Of a stretch of 64,000 nucleotides of DNA, positions 21,431 to 63,764 are shown piece by piece. A program made the position numbers and the translations under genes. The notes below the pieces were generated by a model. That model had not been told where the DNA came from, did not search any database, and saw nothing but the letters and a program-made list of their open reading frames with translations. How positions within the stretch are numbered: position 1 is the first letter of the stretch; every line of letters begins with the position of its first letter. This stretch comes from Escherichia coli. GTDB taxonomy: Bacteria > Pseudomonadota > Gammaproteobacteria > Enterobacterales > Enterobacteriaceae. The DNA is taken from the NCBI RefSeq assembly GCF_001677475.2, contig NZ_CP015229.1; one strand, written 5' to 3'.

Positions 21431-21440
21431 AGAAACGGAA

Positions 21441-36312: not shown

Positions 36313-36363
36313 ATGACACGCGTTCAATTTAAACACCACCATCATCACCATCATCCTGACTAG
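36313..36363 (+). CDS. hisL: his operon leader peptide
   Basis: ATG ACA CGC GTT CAA TTT AAA CAC CAC CAT CAT CAC CAT CAT CCT GAC TAG = MTRVQFKHHHHHHHPD. Confidence 0.97.
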   Translation: MTRVQFKHHHHHHHPD

Positions 36364-36426
36364 TCTTTCAGGCGATGTGTGCTGGAAGACATTCAGATCT
36401 TCCAGTGGTGCATGAACGCATGAGAA

Positions 36427-36462
36427 AGCCCCCGGAAGATCATCTTCCGGGGGCTTTTTTAT
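36427..36462 (+). terminator. his attenuator (rho-independent terminator)
   Basis: AGCCCCCGGAAGATCATCTTCCGGGGGCT hairpin followed by TTTTTTATT, between hisL and hisG. Confidence 0.93.
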
Positions 36463-36508
36463 TGCGCGATTGATAACGGTTCAGACAGGTTTAAAGAGGA
36501 ATAACAAA

Positions 36509-37408: not shown

Positions 37409-37413
37409 TCGCC

Positions 37414-39796
<2,383 letters not shown>

Positions 39797-39797
<1 letters not shown>

Positions 39798-40863
39798 TGA
39801 GTCAGAAGTATCTTTTTATCGATCGCGATGGAACCCTGATTAGCGAACCGCCGAGTGATTTTCAGGTGGACCGTTTTGACAAACTCGCCTTTGAACCGGG
39901 CGTGATCCCGGAACTGCTGAAGCTGCAAAAAGCGGGCTACAAGCTGGTGATGATCACTAATCAGGATGGTCTTGGAACACAAAGTTTCCCGCAGCCGGAT
40001 TTTGATGGCCCGCACAACCTGATGATGCAGATCTTCACCTCGCAAGGCGTACAGTTTGATGAAGTGCTGATTTGTCCGCATCTGCCCGCCGATGAGTGCG
40101 ACTGCCGTAAGCCGAAAGTAAAACTGGTGGAGCGTTATCTGGCTGAGCAAGCGATGGATCGCTCTAACAGTTATGTGATTGGCGATCGCGCGACCGATAT
40201 TCAACTGGCAGAAAACATGGGCATTACTGGTTTACGCTACGACCGCGAAACCCTGAACTGGCCGATGATTGGCGAGCAACTTACCAAACGAGACCGTTAC
40301 GCCCATGTAGTGCGCAACACCAAAGAGACGCAAATTGACGTCCAGGTGTGGCTGGATCGTGAAGGTGGCAGCAAGATTAACACCGGCGTTGGCTTCTTTG
40401 ATCACATGCTGGATCAGATCGCCACCCACGGCGGTTTCCGCATGGAAATCAACGTCAAAGGCGACCTCTATATCGACGATCACCACACCGTCGAAGATAC
40501 CGGCCTGGCGCTGGGCGAAGCGTTAAAAATGGCTCTTGGCGACAAACGCGGTATTTGTCGCTTTGGTTTTGTGCTACCGATGGACGAATGCCTTGCCCGC
40601 TGTGCACTGGATATCTCTGGTCGCCCGCACCTGGAATATAAGGCCGAATTTACCTACCAGCGCGTGGGCGATCTCAGCACCGAAATGATCGAGCACTTCT
40701 TCCGTTCGCTCTCATACACCATGGGCGTGACCCTGCACCTGAAAACCAAAGGTAAAAACGATCACCACCGTGTAGAGAGCCTGTTCAAAGCTTTTGGTCG
40801 CACCCTGCGCCAGGCCATCCGCGTGGAAGGCGATACCCTGCCCTCATCGAAAGGAGTGCTGTA

Positions 40864-40864
<1 letters not shown>
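39797..40864 (+). CDS. hisB: Bifunctional histidinol-phosphatase / imidazoleglycerol-phosphate dehydratase
   Basis: [27 protein letters not shown]...; ATG overlaps the hisC TGA. Confidence 0.97.
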
Positions 40865-42942
<2,078 letters not shown>

Positions 42943-42949
<7 letters not shown>

Positions 42950-43554
42950 CAGAACAACAACGTCGCGAACTGGACTGGGAAAAAACTGACGGACTGATGC
43001 CGGTGATTGTTCAACACGCGGTATCTGGCGAAGTGCTAATGCTGGGCTATATGAACCCGGAAGCCTTAGACAAAACCATCGAAAGCGGCAAAGTCACCTT
43101 CTTCTCGCGCACTAAACAGCGACTGTGGACCAAAGGCGAAACGTCGGGTAATTTCCTCAACGTAGTGAGCATTGCGCCGGACTGCGACAACGACACTTTA
43201 TTAGTGCTGGCGAATCCCATCGGCCCGACCTGCCACAAAGGCACCAGCAGCTGCTTCGGTGACACCGCTCACCAGTGGCTGTTCCTCTATCAACTGGAAC
43301 AACTGCTTGCCGAACGTAAATCTGCCGATCCGGAAACCTCCTACACTGCCAAACTGTATGCCAGCGGCACCAAACGCATCGCGCAGAAAGTGGGCGAAGA
43401 AGGCGTGGAAACCGCACTAGCAGCAACGGTACATGACCGCTTTGAGCTGACCAACGAGGCATCTGACTTGATGTATCACCTGCTGGTGCTGTTGCAGGAT
43501 CAGGACCTGGATTTAACGACGGTGATTGAGAACCTGCGTAAACGGCATCAGTGA
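42943..43554 (+). CDS. hisI: Bifunctional phosphoribosyl-AMP cyclohydrolase / phosphoribosyl-ATP pyrophosphatase
   Basis: 203 aa [42 protein letters not shown]... Confidence 0.97.
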
Positions 43555-46189: not shown

Positions 46190-47596
46190 TTAATCCAGCC
46201 ATTCAGTATGGAACACACCTTCTTTATCAATGCGCTTATAAGTATGCGCACCGAAATAGTCACGCTGTGCCTGGATCAGGTTTGCAGGCAGAACTGCGGC
46301 GCGGTAGCTGTCATAATAGGCAACCGCAGCCGCGAAGGTCGGAACCGGGATACCGTTCTGTACTGCATAAGCAACGACATCACGCAGCGCCTGCTGGTAG
46401 TCATCGGCAATTTGCTTAAAGTACGGAGCCAGCAGCAGGTTAGCGATCTGTGGATTTTCGGCATATGCATCGGTGATTTTCTGCAGGAACTGCGCACGGA
46501 TGATGCAGCCAGCACGGAAAATCTTCGCGATTTCGCCGTAGTTCAGATCCCAGTTGTATTCTTCAGACGCAGCACGCAGCTGAGAGAAGCCCTGAGCGTA
46601 AGAAACGATTTTGCCCAGATACAGCGCACGGCGAACTTTTTCGATGAACTCAGCCTTGTCGCCTGCTGACTGAGCTTGCGGACCAGAGAGAACTTTAGAT
46701 GCGGCAACGCGCTGATCTTTCAGAGAAGAGATATAACGTGCAAACACAGACTCGGTAATCAGCGACAGCGGTTCTCCGAGATCCAGCGCGCTCTGGCTGG
46801 TCCATTTACCGGTACCTTTGTTAGCCGCTTCATCCAGGATCACATCAACCAAGTAGTTACCGTCTTCATCTTTTTTAGTGAAGATGTCTTTGGTGATGTC
46901 GATCAGGTAGCTGCTCAGTTCACCGTTATTCCACTCGGTAAAGGTCTGTGCCAGTTCTTCGTTGGTGAGGTTCAGGCCACCTTTAAGCAGAGAATAGGCT
47001 TCAGCAATCAGTTGCATATCACCGTATTCAATACCGTTGTGAACCATCTTCACATAGTGACCTGCACCATCGGCACCAATATAGGTAACGCATGGCTCCC
47101 CGTCTTCAGCTACTGCGGCGATTTTGGTCAGGATCGGTGCAACCAGTTCATAGGCTTCTTTCTGCCCACCAGGCATAATGGAAGGACCTTTCAGCGCACC
47201 TTCTTCACCGCCGGAAACACCGGTACCAATGAAGTTAAAACCTTCGGCAGAAAGCTCACGATTACGACGAATGGTGTCCTGGAAGAAGGTATTACCACCA
47301 TCAATAATGATGTCACCTTTATCGAGGTATGGCTTGAGGGAATCAATAGCAGCATCCGTGCCTGCACCTGCTTTAACCATTAACAGGATGCGACGAGGCG
47401 TTTCCAGAGATTCAACGAACTCTTTCACCGTATAGTAAGGAACCAGTTTTTTGCCTGGATTTTCGGCAATCACTTCTTCCGTCTTTTCACGGGAACGGTT
47501 GAAAATAGAGACGGTATAACCACGGCTTTCGATGTTAAGCGCAAGATTGCGCCCCATCACTGCCATACCGACTACGCCAATCTGTTGCTTTGACAT
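46190..47596 (-). CDS. gnd: 6-phosphogluconate dehydrogenase (decarboxylating)
   Basis: 468 aa [30 protein letters not shown]... Confidence 0.98.
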
Positions 47597-47787
47597 TGTT
47601 TACTCCTGTCAGGGGGTTACCGCGGGATTGCGCGGCTTGAATATGAAACAGATGTTAACTCAAGTTACATGAATGTGTGTAGTGCTGAATTTCATTAATG
47701 CAACGAATACCGTTCATCTTCCTTTATACAGACATCCACTTGTAACCAAACCTACGCGCACATGTAAGCGAAGATAAATCTATAACA

Positions 47788-49212
47788 TCAAGAAATTAAA
47801 GATATAATACTCCCAAGCACATTCGTAACATATTGCTTAGCCTGATTTTCATCACTGCCTTCAGCGTAACAACGGAGTTCAGGGGCATTTCCGGAAGGAC
47901 GGAGATGTATAATATCACCATTAGTTAAAATAAATCTTGCACCATCAGTTTCATCAATAGTGGAACAGGATAATGATTCATACCCTAATTTATTAAAGAA
48001 ATTATTAGGTGATGAAATGGCATTTTTTATAATTTGCTGACTTGACTCTGAAGGAAAGTTTTTCACTCTATCTGACCAAGTAAATCGCTGTGGAAGATTA
48101 TTAACCAGTTGAGAGATAGTACTATTGCGAGAAGCTATTAAGAGCATTAACGCTGGTAATACTGCATCTCGAGTAGGTAACGCATTTAATTCTTTGCCAT
48201 TAATTTGTAAATCGGAGGCAAGCAGAAAACCGCCATTAGCTTCAAAACCAGCGACTGAATCAAATTGTTTAGCAAGTTCTGAAAACGCTGCAATCACATA
48301 AGGAGAGCCAATTTTAGTCCGTTGTGTATTTGCAAATTTATTAGATTGTTCAATTGCTGTATTACAACTCACTGGAATAGCCAACGCCTTGATATTAAGT
48401 TCAATAGCCGTAAGTAATCCCAGAATATCGCCTCGTAGCCATTCACCATTTTCATCGGCAACTAAAGGGCGATCACCATCACCATCTGTTGAGAAAATTG
48501 CATCGAGATTGTATTTTTTAGACCACTCTCTTGCAAGTAGACGATCTTCTTCGCTAACTGCTTCCGTATCAATAGGAACGAACTCATCACTTCTACCGAG
48601 GGAGATGACCTCAGCACCCAATTGATTAAAAAGTGGAGCATATAAATCTCGTCCTGCACTAGAATGTTCATAGATCCCAATTCTCTTCCCCTTTAAAATA
48701 TCGGAATTAAAAAGAGAAACATAACGTTCTAGGTATGAATCCGCACCTTGAGTACTTGTTTCAAGATGAGGTAATACATCTACAGGAGAAAAAACATATT
48801 CACTATTTACTATTGCTAACTCATCCTCTTTTGTGATTTCACCATCTGGACGGTAAAATTTCAAACCATTACGGTCAAAAGGTATGTGACTACCGGTAAC
48901 CATTATGCAGGGGATGTTTTTCTGCATGGAATAATGAGCTAATGCAGGGGTCGGAATTACACCATGATATTCAACAGCGAACCCATGTTGTTTGATAGCG
49001 AACGCGCATGCCTGAGCAATTTCATAACTACTCGGGCGATTGTCAATGGCTAAAGCAACTTTATTAAAATTGTATTTGTCATCAATAACAGAAAGAAACG
49101 CATGACTGAAGGCTGCACAAACATCATGGGTAAAATCGATGACTAAACCACGAGCACCACTAGTGCCGAAAGCAATATTGCTATCGGTAATGATTTTGTT
49201 AGCATTTAACAT
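47788..49212 (-). CDS. manB: Phosphomannomutase
   Basis: 474 aa alpha-D-phosphohexomutase; active-site TGSHIP and metal-binding DGDGDR. Confidence 0.88.
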   Translation of the reverse strand: MLNANKIITDSNIAFGTSGARGLVIDFTHDVCAAFSHAFLSVIDDKYNFNKVALAIDNRPSSYEIAQACAFAIKQHGFAVEYHGVIPTPALAHYSMQKNIPCIMVTGSHIPFDRNGLKFYRPDGEITKEDELAIVNSEYVFSPVDVLPHLETSTQGADSYLERYVSLFNSDILKGKRIGIYEHSSAGRDLYAPLFNQLGAEVISLGRSDEFVPIDTEAVSEEDRLLAREWSKKYNLDAIFSTDGDGDRPLVADENGEWLRGDILGLLTAIELNIKALAIPVSCNTAIEQSNKFANTQRTKIGSPYVIAAFSELAKQFDSVAGFEANGGFLLASDLQINGKELNALPTRDAVLPALMLLIASRNSTISQLVNNLPQRFTWSDRVKNFPSESSQQIIKNAISSPNNFFNKLGYESLSCSTIDETDGARFILTNGDIIHLRPSGNAPELRCYAEGSDENQAKQYVTNVLGSIISLIS

Positions 49213-49217
49213 GATGA

Positions 49218-49964
49218 TTACTTCTTAATAAATTGAGGAAGTTTGGATAGATTTTTATACGCTAAAGCTATTGGCCAGATAATACCATTCTGTTTCATAG
49301 CGCGAATATCTTCCATTGATTTATTGATCATGGAAGATGCTGAGCGATTGCTAATTCCACCAACACGCATTTTCACTAATACTTTTGGTAAGTAAGCTAT
49401 TGAAATACGCTGTTTTAAAATATAACGTAATAATGAGTCATAATCAGCAGATATTCGGTAATCTAATGAAAAACAACCAAACTCACTATAACAATCGCGT
49501 TTCATATAAAATGATGGGTGTGGCGGCATCCAACCTAGTTTCATCTTCAAACGGCTAAATGAGCCACTCTTCCATAATCTAATACGTTTAGTCGTATCAT
49601 TTTGGGCAACATACTCCAAATCACCATAAACAGCATCACACCCTGAACTTTCAAATGTTTTTACTATATCTGCAATAGCATCGTCATAAGCAAGTAAGTC
49701 ATCAGAGTGCAAAAATCCAATTATATCACCAGAAGCTGCTTGAATACCTTTATTCAGTGCATCATAAATACCATTGTCGGGTTCGCAAATGATTGTTGAA
49801 ACTCTTGTACATTTACTCTTGATTAGCTCTATTGTATTATCTTTCGATGCTCCATCTACAACTATATATTCAATATCTGAATGCGTTTGTTTTTCCAGAG
49901 AGAGTAATGTATCAAGAAGCGTTTTTTCACTATTATAAGTTGCTGTGATAATTGAAATCCGCAT
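49218..49964 (-). CDS. Glycosyltransferase, family 2
   Basis: 248 aa MRISIITATYNSEKTLLDTLLSLEKQTHSDIEYIVVDGASKDNT... (GT-A fold). Confidence 0.8.
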   Translation of the reverse strand: MRISIITATYNSEKTLLDTLLSLEKQTHSDIEYIVVDGASKDNTIELIKSKCTRVSTIICEPDNGIYDALNKGIQAASGDIIGFLHSDDLLAYDDAIADIVKTFESSGCDAVYGDLEYVAQNDTTKRIRLWKSGSFSRLKMKLGWMPPHPSFYMKRDCYSEFGCFSLDYRISADYDSLLRYILKQRISIAYLPKVLVKMRVGGISNRSASSMINKSMEDIRAMKQNGIIWPIALAYKNLSKLPQFIKK

Positions 49965-51370
49965 TAGTATCCAACTCCAGAAGAAGAAACTCTTATAACA
50001 TCATCCTCTTCCAAGTAGACTCCTGATCTAACCTCAATTATTTCAAGTGGGATCTTGCCAGGATTTTCAATGGCATGTGGAACACCAACAGGTATATATG
50101 TTGATTCATTTTCTGAAACAAGATAAGTTTTCTCCTCAAGATGAACTTTAGCTGTCCCCGAAACAACAATCCAATGTTCAGTACGATGGTAATGGATCTG
50201 CTTAGCGGTAATGTGACCCGGTAATACAATCACATGTTTAACCTGAAAGCGTTGCCCTTCAGCTATAGTGTCATGACTGCCCCAAGGACGAAAAATTTCC
50301 CGATGTTGTAAATATTCTGTTCGATTATTCTTTTTAAGCTGAGCTACGATGTTTTTAACTTGCTGAACTTTATCTTTATGAGCAACTAATACTGCATCTT
50401 TCGTTTCAACGACAACCAAATCCTTTACGCCCACGGCACCAATAAGTCTATGCTGCGAATAAAGATAACTATCTGTAGCATCCTCAACCAAAACATCACC
50501 ACGAATGGCATTGCCGCTTTGGTCTTTTGAACTTATTTCCCACAGCGCAGACCATGACCCAACATCACTCCATTGCGCATCCAATGGTACGACTACAGCT
50601 TCTGCTGTTTTTTCCATAACGGCATAGTCGATTGACTCTTCAGGGCAGCAAGAAAAAGAAGAATTATCCAAGCGGATAAAATCTAAATCTTGAGTCGAGG
50701 AAGCTAAGGATTGCTGACAACTCTCTAGAATATCTGGACGGAATTTTTTTAGTTCATCGATGAATACAGATGCTCTGAACATAAACATTCCACTATTCCA
50801 AAGATAACCGCCATCTGACAAATACCGCTGAGCTAATTCTAGCTCTGGCTTTTCAACAAAAGCTGCAACTTTATAACCTTGCCCACTAAGTGGATCACCT
50901 GACTTAATATAGCCATACCCTGTCTCTGGAGCTGTTGGAACAATGCCAAATGTGACCAACTTACCTTGCTGCGCAAACTCCTTCGCGGCCAAAACTGCTG
51001 TAATGAAACTATTCTCATCCTGAATTTCATGGTCAGCCGCAAGAACTAAAAGTATAGGATCCTCTCCACTTGCCGTTGCCTGAAGCGCTGCAAGGGCTAC
51101 AGCTGGTGCCGTATTGCGCCCAACAGGCTCAAGCAAAATCCCACTATGCTTTAAACCAACTTTACGTAATTGTTCAGCAACGATGAAACGATGTGATTCA
51201 TTACAAATGATCAAAGCAGGATTGTGTTCAACCTTTTCTAGCCGTCGCATAGTCTCTTGCAACATAGTTAAGCGGCTATTTAAAGACAGAAATTGTTTCG
51301 GATAAAGTGTACGTGAAAGAGGCCATAATCTGGTACCAGATCCACCGGCCATGACAACGGGAAGTAGCAT
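49964..51370 (-). CDS. manC: Mannose-1-phosphate guanylyltransferase / mannose-6-phosphate isomerase
   Basis: 468 aa [28 protein letters not shown]... with C-terminal cupin. Confidence 0.92.
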   Translation of the reverse strand: MLLPVVMAGGSGTRLWPLSRTLYPKQFLSLNSRLTMLQETMRRLEKVEHNPALIICNESHRFIVAEQLRKVGLKHSGILLEPVGRNTAPAVALAALQATASGEDPILLVLAADHEIQDENSFITAVLAAKEFAQQGKLVTFGIVPTAPETGYGYIKSGDPLSGQGYKVAAFVEKPELELAQRYLSDGGYLWNSGMFMFRASVFIDELKKFRPDILESCQQSLASSTQDLDFIRLDNSSFSCCPEESIDYAVMEKTAEAVVVPLDAQWSDVGSWSALWEISSKDQSGNAIRGDVLVEDATDSYLYSQHRLIGAVGVKDLVVVETKDAVLVAHKDKVQQVKNIVAQLKKNNRTEYLQHREIFRPWGSHDTIAEGQRFQVKHVIVLPGHITAKQIHYHRTEHWIVVSGTAKVHLEEKTYLVSENESTYIPVGVPHAIENPGKIPLEIIEVRSGVYLEEDDVIRVSSSGVGY

Positions 51371-51375
51371 ATCTA

Positions 51376-51837
51376 TTACCTTGATATAAAATAATTTTTG
51401 GTATATTGATGAACTGTAGTGCTATTAAGCAACGTTACTACATCAAACCACTTGTAGGAATTATGCTGAATCGTTGGTAGGCGAAGTTGCTGCGGATTAA
51501 TTTGAATTTCATATCCATGCACTACGTAGTGTGTAGAAAAATCTAGTTCAGAAAAATTGTCATTGTAAAAGTGTTCATACACACCAAGAAATATGGCCTC
51601 ACCAAGACTAGTTTGAACGCCTAACTCTTCATATGTGATCCTTTTAAAAGCATCCTCGAATGACTCGTCCTTAAAAATTCGCCCTCCAGGCACAAACCAA
51701 TAATTTTTTGCGGGGCGATTCAGGCGCTGCCCAAGCAGCGCCTCTCCTTTATCATTTCTAATTATGAGGTCAATCGAGATTAGAGGAGTATGCTTGACTA
51801 TTGTTTTAAATAACTCATATTCTAATCTCTTTTTCAT
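51376..51837 (-). CDS. gmm: GDP-mannose mannosyl hydrolase (Nudix)
   Basis: 153 aa Nudix box GGRIFKDESFEDAFKRITYEELG. Confidence 0.88.
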   Translation of the reverse strand: MKKRLEYELFKTIVKHTPLISIDLIIRNDKGEALLGQRLNRPAKNYWFVPGGRIFKDESFEDAFKRITYEELGVQTSLGEAIFLGVYEHFYNDNFSELDFSTHYVVHGYEIQINPQQLRLPTIQHNSYKWFDVVTLLNSTTVHQYTKNYFISR

Positions 51838-51839
51838 AA

Positions 51840-52805
51840 CTATCCCCGAAAAGAATCAATATTCTCAAGAAACCATTGATATGTTAATGATAGACCTTCA
51901 TGTAAATTATAGCGATGTAGCCAGCCCAAGTTTTTGAGTCGGGTAACGTCCATAAGCTTTCGCGGGGTGCCATCTGGTTTGGTCGCGTCAAAAACAATTT
52001 TTCCTTGATAACCCACTACAGAAGCCATTGTTTCAGCCATTTCACGTATAGAACAATCCACCCCCGTACCAACATTAATATGAGATAACATTGGTTGTGT
52101 ATTTTGTTGATAGATTGTGTCCTCTAACTCCATCACATGAACCGAGGCAGCAGCCATATCATCAACATATAAAAACTCACGCATCGGTGTTCCCGTGCCC
52201 CAGACAATAACTTCTTGTGCACCACTTTCTTTTGCCTCATGGAATCTACGCATAAGCGCCGGAATAACATGGGAGTTTTCAGGATGGAAGTTATCATTCG
52301 AACCATAAAGATTAGTCGGCATTACACTTCTATAATCGCGACCATATTGACGATTATAAGACTCACATAATTTTATGCCCGCAATCTTAGCAATTGCGTA
52401 TGGCTCATTAGTTGGCTCAAGTATGCCCGTCAAAAGTGCAGACTCTTTCATCGGCTGCTCTGCAAATTTTGGATAAATGCAGCTAGAGCCTAAAAAAAGT
52501 AATTTTTGAATTCCAACCTTGTGAGCTGAATGTATAATATTACTCTCAATCATGAGATTCTGATAAATGAATTCTGCTGGAAATGTATTATTGGCATAAA
52601 TACCACCTACTTTTGCCGCAGCAAGATAAACCTGATCAACCCTCTCTCTCTCAAAAAATGCCTCAACATCCTTCTGCACGGTCAGATCGAGTTCTTTGTG
52701 TGTTTTAACCACTAACTCGATATCATCACGCAGCGATAATTGTCGGCAAATAGCAGAGCCAACCATGCCCTGGTGCCCAGCAACATATACTCTTTTCTTT
52801 ATCAT
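51840..52805 (-). CDS. fcl: GDP-L-fucose synthase
   Basis: 321 aa [23 protein letters not shown]... Confidence 0.93.
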
Positions 52806-52808
52806 GTA

Positions 52809-53942
52809 TTAACGCTCCAGAGAAACCGAAACATCATAACCATGGCTTTTAAGAAGTGCATGTTGTTTCGCTTTTAACAAATCGCTAGCAACCATTTCTG
52901 CACACATCTCTTCAACTGTAATCTCTGGTTCCCAGCCTAATAGATTTTTTGCTTTTGCAGGGTCACCTAAGAGTGTTTCAACTTCAGCAGGACGGAAATA
53001 ACGAGGATCAACCCGAACTATAACGTCTCCAACATTTACACCAATAGCACAATCGGAAACTTTATTAACTACTGTGGCTATCTCATCTACACCCTCACCA
53101 GTGAATTCAAGTTCAAGTCCGACTTCTTTAGCAGCCATACGGACAAATTCACGCACAGATATCTGTTTACCTGTGGCGATGACAAAATCCTCTGGATGAT
53201 CTTGCTGAAGCATCATCCATTGCATGCGAACATAATCTTTAGCGTGTCCCCAGTCACGCAACGAATCCAGATTACCCAAATATAAGCATTGTTCGATCCC
53301 CTGAGAAATATTAGCTATTGCACGAGTAATTTTACGAGTAACAAAAGTTTCTCCACGGCGTGGCGATTCATGGTTAAAAAGAATACCATTACAAGCATAT
53401 ATACCATAAGATTCACGGTAGTTAACTGTTATCCAGTAAGCATACATCTTAGCTACAGCATAAGGCGAACGCGGGTAGAATGGAGTTGTTTCACGCTGAG
53501 GAATCTCTTGCACTAAACCAAAAAGTTCTGAAGTAGATGCTTGATAGAAACGTGTTTTTTTCTCCAGCCCACAGATTCGTATTGCTTCTAATAAACGTAA
53601 TGTACCTATTGCATCTACATCTGCTGTATATTCTGGTGACTCGAATGATACTGCGACATGGGATTGTGCACCAAGGTTATAAATTTCATCCGGTTGAATT
53701 TCTTGGATTAAACGGATCAGATTCGATGTATCTGTTAAATCCCCATAGTGTAAAATAAAATTAGGCTCATCAACGAATCGTGATTGATATATATGATCAA
53801 TTCTATCAGTGTTAAATGACGATGCTCGGCGTTTTATACCATGTACTTCATAACCTTTTTCAATAAGAAATTCAGCAAGATATGAACCATCTTGTCCAGT
53901 TACGCCTGTGATAAATGCAACTTTTTTATTCATTTTAATCAT
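52809..53942 (-). CDS. gmd: GDP-mannose 4,6-dehydratase (true start may be 9 nt downstream, at [10 protein letters not shown])
   Basis: 377 aa; [19 protein letters not shown]... SDR-type dehydratase. Confidence 0.95.
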
Positions 53943-53951
53943 GTTATGTTC

Positions 53952-54983
53952 CTAAATATTCAACTCATTATAAACTTTAATCGTTTCATTAACACATTTT
54001 GACCATGAAAATTTTTGCGCCTGCAGTAAACCTCTTTCGATCATAACATTTCTTTTTAAATTAACTAATTCTAAAGCTTCTTTTAACGTAAACTCATTAA
54101 TATCATCAATATAAATAGGCGCATTCCCCCCTACTTCCGGCAACGAGGATGTGTTTGCACAAATAACTGGACATCCGGCCTGCATAGCTTCTAGGACAGG
54201 TATTCCAAACCCCTCATAACTGGAAGGGTAAACAAGTGCATATGCAGTATTATACTGTATATTTAAATCTTCATTACTCAAAAATGTAAAATGTTCATAT
54301 CTATTTTTTAAATATTTTTCAAGGAGTTCTCTTTCATATTTTTTAAGCGAGCCTCCGCCTACAATTGTAAGCTTTAAGCCATGTAATTTCCCTACAGCTT
54401 TGACTGCAAGAACGAAATTTTTATAACCTTCTCTGGCACCGACAAACAAAACTGAATTATTTACTCTCATATCAGATATGTTAGAAATATGTTTATATGA
54501 TGGGGATACACCATTATAAATCACTCTAATTTTATCTTCACTAATTGGACAGTACTTAAGTAAATCTCTAGCAGTGTTGTTTGAAATACAAATTACGATA
54601 TCACTATTCTTGATAGCATGATATTTTTGAAGAGAATGAATAAATTTTGACATTCCTCCCCTGTATTTTTCATAGGTAAAATCATGAACAGTTGTAACAT
54701 TTTTCACATTCAAATTAGGATTTTTATGAACTCGATAATAACTTGAGTGTAAAACCCTAGTTTTAATATCACTTACATTTCTATATCTTTCTAAAATTCT
54801 TGGCTCACGATATTGCAACTTTAAGTCACTTGTATCAAACTCAAATTCTTTATTTTTATACAATAGAATTTCAGCTTGGTAATTTGATTTCACCATTCCT
54901 TGGATCAACTCATTAAAGTATACACTTATTCCACCAAATGATTGGAGATTATAAATAATCCCATCGATAGTTACCATTATCAT
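53952..54983 (-). CDS. Glycosyltransferase, family 4 (GT-B)
   Basis: 343 aa with EGFGIPVLEAMQAGCPVI motif. Confidence 0.82.
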   Translation of the reverse strand: MIMVTIDGIIYNLQSFGGISVYFNELIQGMVKSNYQAEILLYKNKEFEFDTSDLKLQYREPRILERYRNVSDIKTRVLHSSYYRVHKNPNLNVKNVTTVHDFTYEKYRGGMSKFIHSLQKYHAIKNSDIVICISNNTARDLLKYCPISEDKIRVIYNGVSPSYKHISNISDMRVNNSVLFVGAREGYKNFVLAVKAVGKLHGLKLTIVGGGSLKKYERELLEKYLKNRYEHFTFLSNEDLNIQYNTAYALVYPSSYEGFGIPVLEAMQAGCPVICANTSSLPEVGGNAPIYIDDINEFTLKEALELVNLKRNVMIERGLLQAQKFSWSKCVNETIKVYNELNI

Positions 54984-56236
54984 CGCCCTCGCAAGGTAAT
55001 ACGTTCGATTAGAACGAACAATATCAAAAAGAAGATCAGTAACAATACATATGCAGGCCCAGAAAAATAAGTTCCAAATGAAGGTGAAATGAGAATTATA
55101 GAAAGCAAAAAATAGGATGCAGAGTTCGTAATTACTTTTGCATTAAACATTTTAAGCTTAGCAAAAATATAGCCATAAAAGATATTCATAGGTGAAAGAA
55201 AAGTTAAAATGACCAGTCCAACATATCCATAATCAACAAAATTATCCATCCCTTTTGAAAAAGCAGGTGTATGCCCCGACTCTGCAGCTCCTGGATAATA
55301 GATTTCATTTACATGCAGAAATCCATATACAAAAGGTTTATCAGGAAACAAACCTCTCGGTATATAAGACCAAAACTGGCTGAAATAGACTGTGCCATTG
55401 AAAAATTTAACCACACCTTTATCAATATCTTGCAGCAAATAAATACTGTTTTGATACTGGTCAAAATAAGACAATACTACATCGACATTCATATTTCCAA
55501 TAGCTAAAAATAAATTATAGAGAATGGCACACGCTGCCAGAGGTGTAACTAAAATCAGGCCAAATTTTAGAAATCTAGATTTATTAAGACTTAACACTGC
55601 AAGATAAAAAATCGCAAATGAAAGAATAAAGGTTTTCGATCCAAGAAAAAAAACCAAGGTACAATAGAATATCGCGCATAAAAATAATTTTATTTCCGAG
55701 CGTAAAGCCAACGCTCTAGAAAAATAAGATACTGAAAGCATACTTAAAGAAAAGGCATACAAAAAACCATTACCTTCTCGATAGTTTTGATAACCATCCC
55801 TGGGATTCGTCAACCATCCAGAAATACCTATTTCTGACTTTGAAGAAAGAAGAACAAATAATGTAACAAACAGAACCAATGTAATATTTGATATTCTTTT
55901 TAATTTTGTATGCGAAATTAAGCAAGTTAAATAGCTCTCTCTATTTTTGAATATTATATTAAAAATAAAATAAAATAAAATTATAGATAAAACACCCACA
56001 AAAGAGTATATGTTATATATGAATAAAGCCTCATTATAATATTGATTTAACGCAAAGTCTGAACCATAGAAAAGAGGGGCCAGAATATTTTCCAATAGAA
56101 AAACCGGGAATAAAATAATGGCGCAAATGGTAAAGGGATTGATAATTGTAAGTCTTAGCGTTTTCGTCGCTAATAAAGAAAAAGAAAAATATAGTACTAC
56201 AGCGAGTGTAACATTTAAACAATATATTATTACCAC
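54980..56236 (-). CDS. wzy: Putative O-antigen polymerase Wzy
   Basis: 418 aa, about 10-12 predicted TM helices with a large loop; position inside the O-antigen cluster; very AT-rich. Confidence 0.7.
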   Translation of the reverse strand: MVIIYCLNVTLAVVLYFSFSLLATKTLRLTIINPFTICAIILFPVFLLENILAPLFYGSDFALNQYYNEALFIYNIYSFVGVLSIILFYFIFNIIFKNRESYLTCLISHTKLKRISNITLVLFVTLFVLLSSKSEIGISGWLTNPRDGYQNYREGNGFLYAFSLSMLSVSYFSRALALRSEIKLFLCAIFYCTLVFFLGSKTFILSFAIFYLAVLSLNKSRFLKFGLILVTPLAACAILYNLFLAIGNMNVDVVLSYFDQYQNSIYLLQDIDKGVVKFFNGTVYFSQFWSYIPRGLFPDKPFVYGFLHVNEIYYPGAAESGHTPAFSKGMDNFVDYGYVGLVILTFLSPMNIFYGYIFAKLKMFNAKVITNSASYFLLSIILISPSFGTYFSGPAYVLLLIFFLILFVLIERITLRGR

Positions 56237-56246
56237 ATCCTCTCCC

Positions 56247-57056
56247 CTATCTTAAACCGAATAATTTGCGCTTAATTGATTTTGTTTTTTGATATAATGT
56301 TTGAGGAACAATCATTTTAAATAAAACTTGCAATGTATTATAGACAGCAAATTTTATTTTGTATGATAAGGGCATATGAATATTATTTTTAGCTAGAATG
56401 TAAGCAATTTCTTTCTTGACTAATTTTTTATTAGACTCATTTGAACTTACACCCGAAGCATCCATTATGGATACAGGAAAATTCACATAATGCAACGTAG
56501 ATGGATCTATTGTTCTTATCATAAAATCACTATCAGCAGCAATTTTTAGTGTTGTATCAAAGCGATTAGCATTATCTTTAAAAAAGCTAGAATGCTGGAA
56601 AGTACCCTGATGAGGAGGAAGTGAAGGCCGACCACATTCCCACTTTTTCTGTATTTTTCCGTAAACTCCAACTATATTATCTTTATCACTAAAATATACA
56701 TCACCATATATAGTTGTTGCACTCATATTTTCGTGAATGGCATTTGCTATTTTTGAAAGAGTATTATTTTCATAGAATGTATCGCCAGCTCCCATAAAAA
56801 TAACCCAATCGCCATTTATGTGAGGAAGAGCTTTATTCCAAGCGTCGTATATTCCTTGATCAGATTCGCATAAAAAATAATCTATAATATCAATATATCT
56901 ATAAATATATTCTAGTGTTGATTTGTTAGAGTTGCCGTCTATAACAATCCATTGAATATTACAATAATTTTGATTTTTAATAGATTCTGCAGTCTTGCAG
57001 AAATCTTCCTCACAATTATACGTCGATGTTATTATAGTAATCTGTAAGCCATTCAT
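56247..57056 (-). CDS. Glycosyltransferase, family 2
   Basis: 269 aa MNGLQITIITSTYNCEEDFCKTAESIKNQNYCNIQWIVIDGNSN... Confidence 0.8.
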   Translation of the reverse strand: MNGLQITIITSTYNCEEDFCKTAESIKNQNYCNIQWIVIDGNSNKSTLEYIYRYIDIIDYFLCESDQGIYDAWNKALPHINGDWVIFMGAGDTFYENNTLSKIANAIHENMSATTIYGDVYFSDKDNIVGVYGKIQKKWECGRPSLPPHQGTFQHSSFFKDNANRFDTTLKIAADSDFMIRTIDPSTLHYVNFPVSIMDASGVSSNESNKKLVKKEIAYILAKNNIHMPLSYKIKFAVYNTLQVLFKMIVPQTLYQKTKSIKRKLFGLR

Positions 57057-57062
57057 CTTAAC

Positions 57063-57773
57063 TCACTTATTTTTCATAGCAATATATTTTAATCTTAATT
57101 CTTTAATTAATGTCTTTACTTTACTATCAGTGGAATACTCAATATTAAACGTGCCAGAGACTCCTCTTATTTTGGGAATAGTTGTTCCAATAACTCCTTT
57201 TAATTTATTATTTTTAATTTGCTCAAAAAAAATGTGTTCTAAATAAACACCATCAAGGTCACGCACAGATTTATAAGAATTAGCAAAAAAGTCCCAATAT
57301 ATTTTTTTATTTACAACATAAAATCTTGTATCAATCATATTTTCATTCAGAAAAGGAACTGGTATAAAAAAAGCTTTACCATTGAATGCATTTATACATT
57401 GCTTATAATTATCGACGTATAGTTTTGATGTTATTTTTGCAAAACTTTCAGCATTAGACAAATAGCGGCTATTCATTAATGCATACTCAATTATTTCACC
57501 CTCTCCGTAACCTTTACCATAAGATTGAACACTTTCTATATCATTTTTGAAATGTATTATCTCGATCGAATCTTTATTAAGTATTTGTTTATCATTATGA
57601 ATATCTTTCGTCAAATCATAATCACTACCATCACATATTACTATAGAATCAGCATTCTTTGACAACTCTCTTATCGCTTTCAATGTATGTAATAATCTTG
57701 AATTTTCATCAGAAAGATTTGTAAGAGGAGCATTAGGTGAGATACAAGAAGTCACTAATACTGGGATTTTCAT
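57063..57773 (-). CDS. Putative O-antigen glycosyltransferase, family unassigned (236 aa from MKIPVLVTS)
   Basis: ATG overlaps the wzx stop (ATGA); the tracker ORF extends 46 codons further, into wzx; no recognisable GT2/GT4 signature. Confidence 0.55.
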   Translation of the reverse strand: MKIPVLVTSCISPNAPLTNLSDENSRLLHTLKAIRELSKNADSIVICDGSDYDLTKDIHNDKQILNKDSIEIIHFKNDIESVQSYGKGYGEGEIIEYALMNSRYLSNAESFAKITSKLYVDNYKQCINAFNGKAFFIPVPFLNENMIDTRFYVVNKKIYWDFFANSYKSVRDLDGVYLEHIFFEQIKNNKLKGVIGTTIPKIRGVSGTFNIEYSTDSKVKTLIKELRLKYIAMKNK

Positions 57774-59014
57774 TTTTTCTTTTCCAGCCTCAACGAAATT
57801 AACATTAGTATAAAATAATCGACGGTGACTCTTGCGCTCCAAGCATAAGCCACACCTGCTACAGAAAAATACATAATTGAAAAATATAAAACCAGCAGAT
57901 ATGGAATACATTCAACAAGATGAATGAGCCCCGTAATATTTGCATAACCTTTCGATTGGATTTGAGCAAATGGAACTTGAGCAAGAGAGTTGAATACAAA
58001 ACCTACTAATAATATTTGAAATATATAAGGACTCTCAGTGCTATATTGTTTTCCAAGCCATAAAGTTATAATATCACCAGCCTTCAAAGAAAACATAATA
58101 GCTATAACTATACTAGTTACACTTATTAATAACGTAGCCTCTTTTATTATTTTTCTCCGCTCATCTTTTGTATTATTCTTGCATAGAGCAGGAAAAACTG
58201 TCCTTGCTATAGTTGTCGGTAATATAAGTAACTTTGAAATTGCATCTGCAGGAGCAATATATAACGAAGCTTTAGCGGGGCCAACTGCATTTGATAAGAT
58301 AAATCGATCAATATTTGTAAGCAATGGGTTAATTATACTACTAATACTCGCCCATCCTCCAAAACTTAATAGTGCTTTTGTTTTACTTAGACTAAAATCC
58401 ATTGTAAGCCTATTATTTCTAAAAACAAAGAACACGCTTAAAAGAGCACCAACTATTCTCGCAATCACCAATCCCAAAGTAGCATTAAGCAAACCAACAT
58501 TTCCATGAATGAAAATAACTGGTAGTAGCGCAGTTAACACACCTGTAATTGTTTTTTGTACATTCAATAATTTGAACTTTTCATATCCTTCTAATATCCC
58601 CCAACAAACCATATTAAGAAGATAAAATGGCAGACAGTAGGATAAAATACTTATAGCATATGCAACACTTTCAGTTTGTTCCGGACCACTAATTAAGGAT
58701 GCAATCTTATGGTCGCAGTAATAAAAAATTACGGCTACAACAACACCAATAGATAATGTTAATAAAAATGATGTTGTAATTATTTGACTGGTTGCCTTTT
58801 TGTCGTTTTTATTTAATGATATTTCACGCACAACGGCTCGGGAAAGTCCGAGATCAAATATACTTGCGTATCCAACTATTGTAAAAAACATTAAAAAAAA
58901 GCCAAAGTTAGTTATTCCTAACTCCCTTGCCAAATACCCCATCGCAGGTATTGACAATAAAGTTGGGATTGCATACCCAACCAAATTTATTAAACTATTT
59001 ATTTTAATACTCAT
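57770..59014 (-). CDS. wzx: O-antigen flippase Wzx
   Basis: 414 aa, 12-TM polysaccharide-transporter-like, MSIKINSLINLVGYAIPTLLSIPAMGYLAR... Confidence 0.85.
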   Translation of the reverse strand: MSIKINSLINLVGYAIPTLLSIPAMGYLARELGITNFGFFLMFFTIVGYASIFDLGLSRAVVREISLNKNDKKATSQIITTSFLLTLSIGVVVAVIFYYCDHKIASLISGPEQTESVAYAISILSYCLPFYLLNMVCWGILEGYEKFKLLNVQKTITGVLTALLPVIFIHGNVGLLNATLGLVIARIVGALLSVFFVFRNNRLTMDFSLSKTKALLSFGGWASISSIINPLLTNIDRFILSNAVGPAKASLYIAPADAISKLLILPTTIARTVFPALCKNNTKDERRKIIKEATLLISVTSIVIAIMFSLKAGDIITLWLGKQYSTESPYIFQILLVGFVFNSLAQVPFAQIQSKGYANITGLIHLVECIPYLLVLYFSIMYFSVAGVAYAWSARVTVDYFILMLISLRLEKKK

Positions 59015-59031
59015 TTTTTAATTATCTTTTG

Positions 59032-59574
59032 TCAATAATTATTTTGTATAAATGGAGTGCCCAAACAATCTTTTTGTGATAAAAGAGGTTCTTTGTATAA
59101 TTGCCAATCTATGTTAAGTAAAGCATCATTCCAAATGATACATTTCTCATGTTCTTTTGAGTAAAAATTATTGGTCTTATACAATATTTCTGAACCTTCT
59201 TCTTTTACATAAAAACCATGTGCAAATCCCTCAGGGATCCACAACTGGCGCTTATTCTCAGCAGATAAATTCACCCCAACCCACTTGCCAAAAGTAGGTG
59301 ACGATTTACGAATATCAACCGCAACATCAAAAACCTCACCAACAACGCAACGTACCAATTTCCCTTGCGCATAAGGTTCTAACTGATAATGCAGCCCGCG
59401 TAAAACACCTTTACTAGACTTCGAATGGTTATCCTGGACAAATTCAACCTTACGTCCTACAGCTTCTTCGAATACTTTCTGATTAAAGCTTTCCATAAAG
59501 AAACCACGCTCATCACCAAAAACTTTCGGCTCGAAAATTAACACATCAGGAATTTCTGTTTTAATTACGTTCAT
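59032..59574 (-). CDS. rmlC: dTDP-4-dehydrorhamnose 3,5-epimerase
   Basis: 180 aa MNVIKTEIPDVLIFEPKVFGDERGFFMESF... Confidence 0.95.
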   Translation of the reverse strand: MNVIKTEIPDVLIFEPKVFGDERGFFMESFNQKVFEEAVGRKVEFVQDNHSKSSKGVLRGLHYQLEPYAQGKLVRCVVGEVFDVAVDIRKSSPTFGKWVGVNLSAENKRQLWIPEGFAHGFYVKEEGSEILYKTNNFYSKEHEKCIIWNDALLNIDWQLYKEPLLSQKDCLGTPFIQNNY

Positions 59575-59578
59575 TTTA

Positions 59579-60457
59579 TTAATAACCTTTAATCATTTTC
59601 AGCAGATACTGTCCATAAGCATTTTTTTTCAGCGGCTCCGCTAATGCTTTCACCTGTTCAGCATCAATAAACCCTTTACGGTAAGCAATTTCTTCTGGGC
59701 AGGAAACCTTTAGTCCCTGGCGCTCTTCAATGGTGGCAATGAAGTTGCTTGCTTCAATAAGACTCTGATGTGTCCCCGTATCCAGCCATGCATAACCACG
59801 CCCCATCATGGCAACGGATAAACGCCCCTGTTCCATATAAATACGGTTAATATCGGTAATTTCCAGTTCACCACGGGCAGAAGGCTTAAGGTTTTTCGCC
59901 ATTTCGACAACGTCGTTATCATAGAAATAAAGCCCGGTTACCGCATAATTACTTTTTGGTTGTAGCGGTTTTTCTTCCAGGCAGATCGCCGTACCGTTTT
60001 TATCAAACTCAACGACACCGTAGCGTTCAGGATCATTAACGTGATAGGCAAATACCGTTGCACCACTTTCTTTGTTAACAGCGACATCCATTAACTTCGG
60101 CAGATCATGACCGTAGAAGATATTATCACCAAGAACCAAAGCACAATCATCACCACCGATAAACTCTTCACCGATAATAAACGCCTGCGCAAGCCCATCT
60201 GGAGTCGGTTGCACTTTGTACTGAAGATTTAGCCCCCACTGGCTACCGTCACCCAGCAGTTGTTGAAAACGAGGAGTATCCTGTGGCGTACTAATAATCA
60301 GAATATCGCGAATACCCGCCAACATCAGTGTAGAGAGCGGGTAATAGATCATCGGCTTATCATAAATAGGTAATAGCTGTTTACTGACAGCCATAGTCAC
60401 AGGATAAAGACGTGTACCAGAACCACCCGCTAAAATAATACCTTTACGCGTTTTCAT
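59579..60457 (-). CDS. rmlA: Glucose-1-phosphate thymidylyltransferase
   Basis: 292 aa [42 protein letters not shown]... Confidence 0.97.
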
Positions 60458-60514
60458 TTCATCATTCCTTTTAATTCATCTTGCTCCACCATCACGAACA
60501 AGATGCAAAAACTA

Positions 60515-61414
60515 TTAAATTGCTGTAGTCGTAAATAATTCGTTGAGCATTCGTTTCACACCAACCTGCCACTCAGGCAAGACAAGCGCAAAGTTCTGCT
60601 GAAATTTTTCTGTATTAAGGCGAGAGTTATGTGGACGACGAGCTGGTGTAGGATAGGCTGTTGTTGGTACTGCGTTGAGCTTGTTGAGTGCAAGGGGAAT
60701 ACCTGCTTTGCGCGCCTCTTCAAAAACCAGCGCAGCATAATCGTGCCAGGTTGTGGTACCACTGGCTACCAGATGGTACAAACCTGCGACTTCCGGTTTA
60801 TTCAGTGCCACACGAATAACATGTGCCGTACAATCAGCCAGCAGCTCAGCACCTGTTGGCGCACCAAATTGATCATTTATCACAGCCAGTTCTTCGCGCT
60901 CTTTTGCCAGACGCAACATCGTTTTGGCGAAGTTATTTCCTTTACCTGCGTATACCCAGCTGGTACGGAAAATAAGATGCTTCGCGCAATGTTCCTGTAA
61001 CGCTTTTTCTCCGGCTAACTTGGTTTCACCGTAAACATTTAGCGGTGCGGTTGCATCCGTCTCCAGCCATGGCGTGTCGCCATTTCCAGGGAAGACGTAG
61101 TCAGTTGAGTAATGAATTACCCAAGCCCCAACTTCATTAGCCGCTTTTGCAATTGATTCAACGCTAGTCGCATTGAGTAATTGTGCAAATTCGGGTTCTG
61201 ACTCAGCCTTATCTACTGCGGTGTGAGCCGCAGCATTAACAATAACATCAGGTCGAATTCTTTTGACTGTTTCAGCTACACCTTCAGGATTACTAAAATC
61301 ACCACAATAATCAGTGGAGTGAACATCAAGAGCAATCAAATTACCCAAAGGTGCCAGAGCACGCTGTAGTTCCCAACCTACCTGCCCTGTTTTGCCGAAA
61401 AGGAGGATATTCAT
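60515..61414 (-). CDS. rmlD: dTDP-4-dehydrorhamnose reductase
   Basis: 299 aa [30 protein letters not shown]... Confidence 0.96.
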   Translation of the reverse strand: MNILLFGKTGQVGWELQRALAPLGNLIALDVHSTDYCGDFSNPEGVAETVKRIRPDVIVNAAAHTAVDKAESEPEFAQLLNATSVESIAKAANEVGAWVIHYSTDYVFPGNGDTPWLETDATAPLNVYGETKLAGEKALQEHCAKHLIFRTSWVYAGKGNNFAKTMLRLAKEREELAVINDQFGAPTGAELLADCTAHVIRVALNKPEVAGLYHLVASGTTTWHDYAALVFEEARKAGIPLALNKLNAVPTTAYPTPARRPHNSRLNTEKFQQNFALVLPEWQVGVKRMLNELFTTTAI

Positions 61415-62499
61415 TACTGGCGGCCCTCATAGTTCTGTGCAATCCACGATTGATAGGCACCACTTTTCACATTATCAACCCATTTTGTATTGGACAGGTA
61501 CCATTCCACTGTCTTCCGAATCCCGCTCTCAAACGTTTCCTGCGGTTTCCAGCCCAATTCGCGGCTAATCTTCTCAGCATCAATCGCATAACGGCGATCG
61601 TGTCCCGGGCGGTCGGCAACATAAGTAATTTGCTCACGATAAGATTTCTCTTTCGGTACAATCTCATCCAGCAAATCACAAATAGTAAGCACTACATCGA
61701 TGTTTTTCTTTTCGTTGTGTCCGCCAATATTATAGGTTTCGCCTGCTTTACCTTCAGTAACGACTGTATATAACGCTCGAGCATGATCCTCGACATACAA
61801 CCAATCGCGAATTTGATCCCCTTTACCATAAATAGGTAATGCTTTACCTTCCAGAGCATTCAGAATAACCAATGGAATCAATTTTTCCGGGAAATGATAA
61901 GGGCCATAATTGTTAGAGCAATTAGTCACAATGGTCGGTAAACCATAGGTACGTTTCCACGCGCGGACTAAATGATCGCTGGATGCTTTGGATGCGGAAT
62001 AAGGGCTGCTTGGTGCGTAAGCTGTTGTCTCAGTAAATAAGGGTAATTTTTCTTTATTATTTACTTCGTCAGGATGAGGCAAATCACCATAGACTTCGTC
62101 AGTAGAAATATGATGAAAACGGAAGCTATTTTTCTTGTCGCTATCAAGAGCAGACCAGTAATTGCGAGCGGCTTCCAAAAGGACATAAGTACCAACAATA
62201 TTGGTTTCAATAAATGCCGCAGGGCCTGTAATTGAACGATCCACATGGCTTTCAGCAGCCAGGTGCATCACTGCATCCGGCTGATGCAGAGCAAAAATCC
62301 GCGCCATTGCAGCAGCATCGCAAATATCCGCATGTTCAAAAACATAGCGTTCAGAATCAGAAACATCAGCAAGTGATTCCAGGTTTCCGGCGTACGTTAA
62401 TTTATCGACATTAACAACACTATCCTGCGTATTATTTATAATGTGACGAACTACAGCAGAACCAATAAATCCTGCGCCACCAGTAACAAGTATTTTCAC
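61414..62499 (-). CDS. rmlB: dTDP-glucose 4,6-dehydratase
   Basis: 361 aa [43 protein letters not shown]... Confidence 0.97.
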
Positions 62500-62573
62500 T
62501 TAATTATTCCATATTACTTCAGAGCATGCTGTGAAATAAGCGGCTCTTAGTTTGATTAATAGAGGTATTAATG

Positions 62574-62612
62574 CACGCTACCGCCCCTGGCTTTACAGCT
62601 ACCAGAGCACTG
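62574..62612 (-). promoter_or_regulatory. JUMPstart element with ops (RfaH-dependent antitermination site) in the O-antigen operon leader
   Basis: Minus strand reads CAGTGCTCTGGTAGCTGTAAAGCCAGGGGCGGTAGCGTG; ops core GGCGGTAGCGTG. Confidence 0.9.
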
Positions 62613-62870
62613 CATGCATGCCTACGATGTGACGAGCGTTACCCACTCGCGCTAAACCCGAAAAATTCAAACACTAATTGTCTTACCAATCCGCTCTGGA
62701 AACAAGGAAAATCCTGGAAAACTTTGACTAAAATCCTATTGCTAACTCGTTGTTATCCTGATTGTTTATATAAAACAACGGCAGGAATATTCGCAACAAA
62801 TTACTTTCGCCACGAATCTTCACTGCCGTTATAATTTTCTTATCAACCGTTACATTCGGTCAGATTTTCA

Positions 62871-63764
62871 TTATTCGCTTAACAGCTTCTCAATGCCTTT
62901 ACGGAACTTCGCCCCTTCTTTCAGGTTGCGTAGTCCATACTTCACGAACGCTTGCATATAACCCATTTTTTTACCGCAGTCGTAGCTGTCACCAGTCATC
63001 AGCATTGCATCAACAGACTGTTTTTTCGCCAGTTCGGCAATGGCATCTGTCAGTTGGATACGTCCCCATGCACCTGGCTGAGTGCGTTCAAGTTCCGGCC
63101 AAATATCGGCAGAAAGCACATAGCGACCAACGGCCATGATGTCTGAGTCCAGCGTCTGCGGCTGATCCGGTTTTTCGATGAATTCAACAATGCGGCTGAC
63201 TTTACCTTCGCGATCCAGTGGTTCTTTGGTCTGAATAACGGAGTATTCAGAGAGGTCACCCGGCATACGTTTTGCCAGCACCTGGCTGCGGCCCGTTTCG
63301 TTGAAGCGCGCAATCATGGCAGCAAGGTTGTAGCGCAGCGGGTCGGCGCTGGCGTCATCGATCACAACGTCTGGCAGCACCACGACAAATGGGTTGTCAC
63401 CAATGGCGGGTCGTGCACACAAAATGGAGTGGCCCAAACCTAAAGGTTCGCCCTGACGCACGTTCATAATGGTCACGCCCGGTGGACAGATGGACTGCAC
63501 TTCCGCAAGCAGTTGACGCTTCACGCGCTGCTCAAGGAGAGATTCTAATTCATAAGAGGTGTCGAAGTGGTTTTCGACCGCGTTCTTGGACGCGTGAGTT
63601 ACCAGGAGGATTTCTTTGATCCCTGCAGCAACAATCTCGTCAACAATGTACTGAATCATTGGCTTGTCGACGATCGGTAGCATCTCTTTGGGAATCGCCT
63701 TAGTGGCAGGCAACATATGCATCCCAAGACCCGCTACAGGAATAACTGCTTTTAAATTCGTCAT
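62871..63764 (-). CDS. galF: UTP--glucose-1-phosphate uridylyltransferase-like regulatory subunit GalF
   Basis: [48 protein letters not shown]...; start taken at MTNLK. Confidence 0.96.

Follow-up and report, generated by a model that had tools for sequence, protein, structure and literature searches.

The 39-bp segment at positions 62574–62612 (minus strand) of the window, by which we mean the whole 64,000-nt (64-kb) stretch of Escherichia coli contig NZ_CP015229.1 that was analysed, is a JUMPstart element ending in the ops sequence, a real and already known element found here at its textbook location and in sequence-identical form. With a probability of roughly 0.9, we consider it to be the JUMPstart/ops in the leader region that precedes an O-antigen operon of E. 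coli type (O36), where it would act with RfaH-dependent anti-termination; this reading draws on sequence comparison and on published work on loci that carry the same element.

The element was read directly from the sequence (CAGTGCTCTGGTAGCTGTAAAGCCAGGGGCGGTAGCGTG, the reverse complement of 62574–62612) and was recovered in a whole-window scan with Rfam 15, in which the JUMPstart model RF01707 matched exactly 62574–62612 on the minus strand with 60.0 bits (gathering score 35, E = 2.6e-11), model positions 1–38 of 38 being covered. It shows 0 mismatches to the 39-bp JUMPstart that Hobbs and Reeves reportedly described in 1994. Its 3' end is formed by the ops 12-mer GGCGGTAGCGTG (62585..62574, minus; G1 at 62585, pause position U11 at 62575, G12 at 62574), which has 0 mismatches and is the sole exact copy within the window; the 12 nt (GGCGGTAGnnTG) are complete, with G4, G5, T6, A7, G8 and the T11-G12 pause dinucleotide all present. 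For a window of this base composition, the expected number of exact copies is 0.005 for the 12-mer and approximately 2e-19 for the 39-mer. The ops lies on the minus strand, which is the sense (non-template) strand, like galF, rmlB and all 15 genes of the cluster, and it is intergenic, outside every ORF and 3' of a terminator-like hairpin behind galF. The same 12-mer was used as an oligonucleotide, named "ops12", by Zuber et al. 2018 (PMC5995543). The initial annotation, which had been made from the letters of the window, had proposed a JUMPstart at this place, in sense orientation between galF and rmlB, and had named a mismatch in the ops core as the outcome that would speak against it. The exact 39-mer, together with the RF01707 match at the same coordinates and strand, confirms the element, alignment of the ops core revealed no mismatch in the 12-mer, and the placement and orientation are borne out by the ORFs and the NCBIfam assignments.

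These assignments locate the two conserved flanks of the O-antigen locus: upstream, galF at 62871–63764 (minus; NCBIfam TIGR01105, 689 bits, residues 5–301 of the longest ORF) and, downstream, gnd at 46190..47596 (minus; NCBIfam, 775 bits), 191 bp after manB. Between them, ORFs, NCBIfam matches, DNA identity, gaps and composition define an O36-type O-antigen operon (47788..62499, minus), whose 15 genes are all co-oriented, are separated by intergenic gaps of −4 to 57 nt and follow the order rmlB, rmlD, rmlA, rmlC, wzx, a hypothetical gene, GT2, wzy, GT4, gmd, fcl, gmm, manC, a second GT2 and manB. rmlB starts with a GTG at 62499 (minus strand), which leaves a galF-rmlB spacer of 371 bp. The earlier description of a roughly 15-kb AT-rich operon proved accurate, with 14.7 kb from rmlB to manB and a GC content of 37% overall and of approximately 30% in the centre around wzx/wzy, compared with 52–58% in the his operon. 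The cluster shares 96–98.5% DNA identity and the same gene order with E. coli genomes in which wzx and wzy bear an O36-family annotation. A search of the manB-gnd interval for terminator-like sites on the minus strand revealed none. The wzy of the window (54980–56236) is an intact 418-codon ORF with a GTG start, and the wzy of the O36 reference genome NZ_OW848980.1 (8583–9837 of extract L128) is annotated as a frameshifted pseudogene. In strain E06, the best-matching genome, the 15.3-kb query aligns in two pieces that span 16.5 kb, which suggests an insertion of approximately 1.2 kb in the E06 cluster.

Sequence identity differs along the window. For the his operon (36500–43550), the highest identity in a set of 5426 complete E. 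coli genomes is 97.4%, while the O36 cluster (47600–62900 region) reaches up to 98.5% elsewhere and the galF-rmlB spacer up to 98.9%. Judged by these values, the host seems to belong to an Escherichia lineage with some divergence, in which exchange of the O-antigen region may be of later date than that of its flank. Elsewhere in the window, a cobalamin riboswitch (8015–8189, minus) and pduO-, pduP- and pduQ-like ORFs (19041–22553) indicate a cob/pdu (propanediol utilisation) island at approximately 8000–22600, with the tRNA at 3721 before it and the his operon after it; this island is not known to occur in K-12. Other Rfam matches above the gathering score were the tRNA (3721–3793), the sRNAs STnc230 and STnc240 (9253–9336 and 33525–33599) and the histidine operon leader (36339–36462; 132.6 bits).

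In the spacer, a terminator-like long hairpin (62775..62832, minus), followed by the U-rich tract UUGUUUUAU, comes directly after galF. It has a folding energy of −29.9 kcal/mol (z = −6.7), a value that 0/200 shuffled sequences equalled, and the weak Rfam microRNA-precursor matches at 62775–62832 reflect this same hairpin, which a simple terminator scan missed. On the predicted fold it is probably the galF terminator, separating galF from the O-antigen unit. A consensus promoter scan (≥9/12) of the sense strand between galF and the JUMPstart returned no site; a candidate sigma-70 promoter under this threshold, with 7/12 consensus positions, is located at 62677..62705 (minus; −35 TTGTTT at 62705–62700, 17-nt spacer, −10 GACAAT at 62682–62677). 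Its hexamers and spacing are kept in 7 of the 8 serogroup leaders that we aligned, and the −10 of O157 reads GATAAT. If this candidate is used, transcription would start near 62667–62672, the leader would be 168–173 nt long and ops G1 would lie approximately 85–90 nt downstream of the start. For the wb* cluster of E. coli O7, Marolda and Valvano reportedly described, in 1998, a promoter in the galF-rmlB spacer and a 173-nt untranslated leader, which is said to carry JUMPstart, two ops-like motifs and predicted stem-loops; the leader length predicted here agrees with these 173 nt, while the serogroup differs. The part of the leader between ops and rmlB, 74 nt long (62500..62573, minus), ends in a weak ribosome-binding region before the GTG: the best anti-Shine-Dalgarno duplex of rmlB has −3.3 kcal/mol and is among the weakest of the cluster, most internal genes having −5 to −8. 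The first gene, rmlB, is thus without a canonical Shine-Dalgarno sequence, a supporting, not strictly defining, trait of RfaH operons.

Comparison with known systems places this leader next to that of K-12 rfbB (rmlB), which has the same 39-mer, likewise placed between galF and rmlB, a 371-bp spacer that is 96% identical and, in the 74 nt after ops, only one substitution and one single-base indel relative to the window. What differs is the downstream cluster, O36-type with rml and GDP-fucose pathway genes in the window and an IS5-disrupted O16 cluster in K-12. The O6 strain M9682-C1 (which is not CFT073 itself) is also 96% identical to the window spacer, over query positions 1–298, and its JUMPstart/ops is identical, but in the O6 cluster wzx comes first and the leader diverges right after ops G12. 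CFT073 (O6) and the window both have AT-rich operons of the H-NS-bound kind behind JUMPstart/ops. Finally, the JUMPstarts of waaQ (LPS core) and wza (colanic acid/group 1 capsule) in Escherichia and other Enterobacterales have the ops 12-mer and GGTAGC in common with the window, as well as a stem-loop equally far from ops and, as in the window, envelope-polysaccharide genes downstream. Their loops and flanks differ from those of the window, and their outer stems differ in a compensatory manner (CAGG...CCUG in the waaQ type, UUGG...CCAA/G in the wza type and CUGG...CCAG in the window).

The exact 39-mer is present in 2178 of the 5426 complete E. coli genomes, K-12 included, as a single copy in all but one and never on plasmids, and a near-identical copy was found in 209 further genomes of this set. 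We aligned the spacer from eight serogroup leaders (this window, K-12 O16, O2, O6, O11, O157 and two untyped strains), whose Rfam JUMPstart scores ranged from 39.9 to 62.4 bits. The block CTGGTAGC...AGCCAGGGGCGGTAGCGTG was invariant in 8/8 leaders, and so were ops and the stem. Clusters that begin with rmlB have the leader after ops in common, whereas those that begin with wzx or a glycosyltransferase gene (O6, O11, O157, CFSAN061763) diverge from the base right after ops; many BLAST alignments of the spacer likewise stop at query positions 296–298, which is the ops end. Since inter-serogroup similarity and BLAST matches both stop there, JUMPstart constitutes the 3' edge of the conserved galF-side flank. 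In genome annotation it can be relied on to mark where O-antigen clusters begin on their 5' side, because the similarity does not extend past the final base of ops. None of the RefSeq records that we examined had a JUMPstart annotation.

Two observations on individual records were made in the course of these comparisons. In NZ_CP042899.1 (1117–2031 of extract L006), the 5' end of a RefSeq glycosyltransferase CDS crosses the JUMPstart (1161–1199), its start codon having probably been called too far upstream. Furthermore, an E. coli-type JUMPstart was seen on contigs filed under Gram-positive taxa, namely Arthrobacter sp. GMC3 (a 4-kb contig with 2x coverage) and three MAGs, assigned to Erysipelotrichia (L079), Peptococcaceae (L127) and Thomasclavelia (L108); in the Peptococcaceae MAG the downstream leader is also the same as that of the window. 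These contigs most likely represent contamination or mis-binning.

In published work, the ops is among the strongest E. coli pause signals, with polymerase pausing at U11 (PMC5995543, PMC11001881), and its non-template strand folds into a small hairpin, through which G5 and T6 are made available to RfaH (PMC5995543); folded as DNA, the 12-mer of the window gives three pairs around a 4-nt loop and resembles this hairpin. Substitution of G4, G5, A7 or G8 abolishes RfaH recruitment, T11G strongly lowers activation, and the 12-nt ops alone is sufficient for recruitment in vitro (PMC5995543). The bases needed for RfaH action in that study (G4, G5, T6, A7, G8 and T11) are intact in the window copy. 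The standard RfaH lux reporter was built with the ops of K-12 rfbB (PMC2871177), and the K-12 rfb operon is reported to rise approximately 300-fold with RfaH (PMC5449661). At the O-antigen locus of CFT073, which is H-NS-coated, the RfaH ChIP signal begins at the leader ops, with sigma-70 peaks upstream (PMC9765446). By analogy, the operon studied here would strongly be expected to depend on RfaH, as the initial annotation had predicted, because its 39-mer is that of the K-12 rfbB leader, its 74-nt leader has two differences from the K-12 one, the same ops serves in the reporter and rfb shows the 300-fold rise.

In the mechanism that we propose, transcription would start at the weak promoter between the terminator-like hairpin of galF and the JUMPstart. 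As published for the identical sequence, polymerase would pause at U11 (62575), and the hairpin of the non-template 12-mer would expose G5 and T6. RfaH would then bind the paused complex, refold its C-terminal domain and remain on polymerase, suppressing pausing and backtracking and excluding NusG, and could recruit a ribosome to rmlB. By identity with the tested loci, premature termination, both Rho-dependent and H-NS-aided, would be suppressed up to manB, that is, along the entire 14.7-kb AT-rich operon, and read-through into gnd would be possible. The GTG start of rmlB and its weak Shine-Dalgarno sequence fit the ribosome-recruitment model quoted in PMC5995543. From the predicted start to manB, the transcript would measure approximately 14.9 kb with 16.4% C, and a similar remark on C content has been made for the waa operon (PMC5449661); since this mRNA is C-poor, it may offer few classical C-rich Rho loading sites. 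No feature of the sequence conflicts with the mechanism; the points that weigh against it are this scarcity of C and the promoter, for which the candidate agrees with 7/12 consensus positions and the scan returned no site.

Upstream of ops, which covers only the last third of the 39-mer, the element contains a stem-loop (62587..62605, minus; 5' arm CUGGU at 62605–62601, 9-nt loop, 3' arm GCCAG at 62591–62587), which is the consensus stem of the Rfam model and in the window pairs C-G, U-A, G-C, G-C and U.G. One genome per bacterial species was scanned for TAGC, a gap of 9–12 bases and GGGCGGTAGCGTG, which returned at least 120 loci, and 91 distinct gammaproteobacterial sequences among the matches listed were aligned after selection by taxonomy and for GGTAGC; approximately 20 matches in GC-rich non-gammaproteobacterial genomes were excluded by taxonomy and treated as chance. 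GGTAGC and ops were therefore fixed by the pattern or the filter, which confined possible variation to the outer two stem pairs and the 3' arm. Most of the matches listed belonged to Enterobacterales, and Shewanella, Aeromonas and Vibrionaceae supplied some of the others. In the 91 copies among the matches listed, 97.1% of the cells of the 5-bp stem were paired and two pairs covaried, the outermost being C-G in 45, U-A in 21 and U.G in 16 copies and the next U-A in 67, G.U in 8, A-U in 7 and G-C in 2. Changes on both sides were seen in 38 cells, compared with 13 ± 3 in shuffled alignments (0/500 reached 38), and sliding the 3' partner by 1–3 columns lowered pairing to only 20–58%. The occurrence of U.G and G.U pairs makes the pairing specific to the sense strand. 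Since the variants fall into few paralogous operon classes, the number of independent change events is small. The 21-nt stem-loop has a folding energy of −5.6 kcal/mol (z = −1.6), which is not significant by itself, and folding energy gave no support for structure in the 176-nt leader (z = −0.68) or the 39-mer (z = −0.03); because these energies are not significant, support for the 5-bp stem comes from covariation, not from energy. A 7-bp stem obtained by energy minimisation was rejected, its two extra pairs being only 54% paired in the same 91 copies among the matches listed. Going by the covariation, the upstream half of JUMPstart is a 5-bp stem-loop maintained by selection, a result that reproduces the conserved stem-loop described in JUMPstart elements by Weinberg et al. 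2010 (PMC2864571).

In a sample of eight other genera, the first ORF downstream of the element belonged to an envelope-polysaccharide family in seven (Wzx-type flippase, GalU/GalF-type nucleotidyltransferase, Wzz, UDP-sugar dehydrogenase, Wzi, WaaQ-like family-9 heptosyltransferase and Wza), the exception being Shewanella xiamenensis, where it encodes an NYN/OST-HTH protein. Individual copies departed from the usual form. Those of the Vibrionaceae Enterovibrio and Photobacterium have UGGG-UAUAGCAUAU-CCCA instead of CUGGU...GCCAG, so that the stem is kept with a different sequence, and in those of Shewanella the loop is shorter and the outer pair does not match. In a gammaproteobacterial MAG (SACH01000005.1; extract L059, approximately 6560–6608, reverse), ACACGGCAGGGCGGTAGCGTG is tandemly duplicated, so that ops occurs twice at a distance of 21 nt, and the stem typical of JUMPstart is missing.

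The covarying stem raises the question of whether the element is mainly, or additionally, a structured nascent-RNA signal, its stem-loop being no spacer but a selected structure that would act together with ops to maintain the pause or to load RfaH or the first ribosome. We regard such a contribution to pausing, factor loading or ribosome loading as possible, and put it forward only tentatively. It is favoured by the near-complete pairing, by the replacement of C-G with U-A in 21 and of U-A with A-U or G-C in 9 of the 91 copies among the matches listed, by the excess of both-side changes over shuffled alignments and the poor pairing of the slid controls, by the sense-strand-specific wobble pairs and by the conserved stem-loop already reported for JUMPstart elements (PMC2864571). 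Position fits as well: the stem ends, on its 3' side, at 62587 and thus 12 nt before the U11 pause position (62575), at the his pause an exit-channel pause hairpin stands at about 12-nt spacing, and this distance would be compatible with a hairpin that forms at the exit channel for RNA while polymerase pauses at ops. Against this, the ops pause is described as biochemically distinct from a hairpin-stabilised pause and has been reconstituted on short scaffolds without the stem (PMC11001881), and RfaH recruitment in vitro requires nothing beyond the 12 nt of ops (PMC5995543). The stem is moreover thermodynamically weak, the independent changes are few and common to paralogous operon classes, and the GGTAGC part of the 5' arm was fixed by the search. 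The role of this conserved covarying stem is the sole non-trivial residue that lies beyond the known ops/RfaH model.

The remaining alternatives are far less probable. That the element, albeit intact, is irrelevant in this strain, with RfaH absent or inactive or with the operon expressed by another route (internal promoters, read-through from galF or from the colanic acid genes), is very unlikely. It can be argued from the location of rfaH, a gene unlinked to this locus, outside the 64-kb window, from the somewhat divergent host lineage (his operon ≤97.4% against the 5426 complete genomes) and from the many promoter-like hexamer pairs in the AT-rich cluster; these, however, number 60, compared with 61.9 ± 7.5 in shuffled sequence, and a strong terminator-like hairpin follows galF. 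Moreover, rfaH is known as a core gene of Escherichia. Furthermore, the 39 bases are all preserved here, while the flanks in this lineage show 2–3% divergence from every complete E. coli genome, which argues for ongoing selection. Marginally less probable again is that the 39-mer is kept mainly as an upstream recombination junction for the exchange of O-antigen clusters, with no regulatory role of its own. The spacer is indeed common up to the last ops base, with O6, O11, O157 and CFSAN061763 differing from the next one and many spacer BLAST matches ending at 296–298, and the higher identity of the O36 cluster (≤98.5%) relative to the his operon (≤97.4%) hints at horizontal exchange. The same element, however, heads unrelated operons within the same genomes, including the polysaccharide genes at 7 of the 8 loci sampled from other genera, a mere junction leaves the covarying stem unexplained, and published genetics and ChIP show function (PMC9765446, PMC5995543, PMC5449661, PMC2871177); a junction role would more readily follow from conservation than take the place of function.

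A chance origin is of negligible probability. Other ops-like strings do occur in the window: the 8-nt ops core GGCGGTAG has 3 further copies, where 1.5 would be expected by chance, and all 3 are inside ORFs. Two of them (27285–27292 and 13110–13117, both minus) are without the T11-G12 dinucleotide, and a one-mismatch ops, GGCGGTAGCGTT (G12 to T), is found at 19974–19985 (plus), near the 3' end of the pduO-like adenosyltransferase ORF (19041–20048), which directly precedes the pduP-like aldehyde dehydrogenase ORF (20045–21430). The sites at 19974 (+), 27292 (−) and 13117 (−) were rejected as RfaH sites, being intragenic, without T11-G12 and the JUMPstart half and in a number that fits chance. 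The string at 19974–19985 was judged a chance match because the JUMPstart half is absent upstream and the position is within a coding region. In CFT073, RfaH is not loaded at intragenic ops-like sites (PMC9765446). The copy at 62574–62612 differs from all of these in its vanishing expectation as a 39-mer, in its Rfam E-value of 2.6e-11 and in its homologous position in thousands of genomes.

Read as the leader element of the O36-type operon, acting with RfaH-dependent anti-termination, JUMPstart/ops would explain why premature termination and silencing do not shut down a surface-antigen operon that is 15 kb long, AT-rich and horizontally acquired. The expression of the O antigen in turn bears on serum resistance, phage sensitivity and serotyping.
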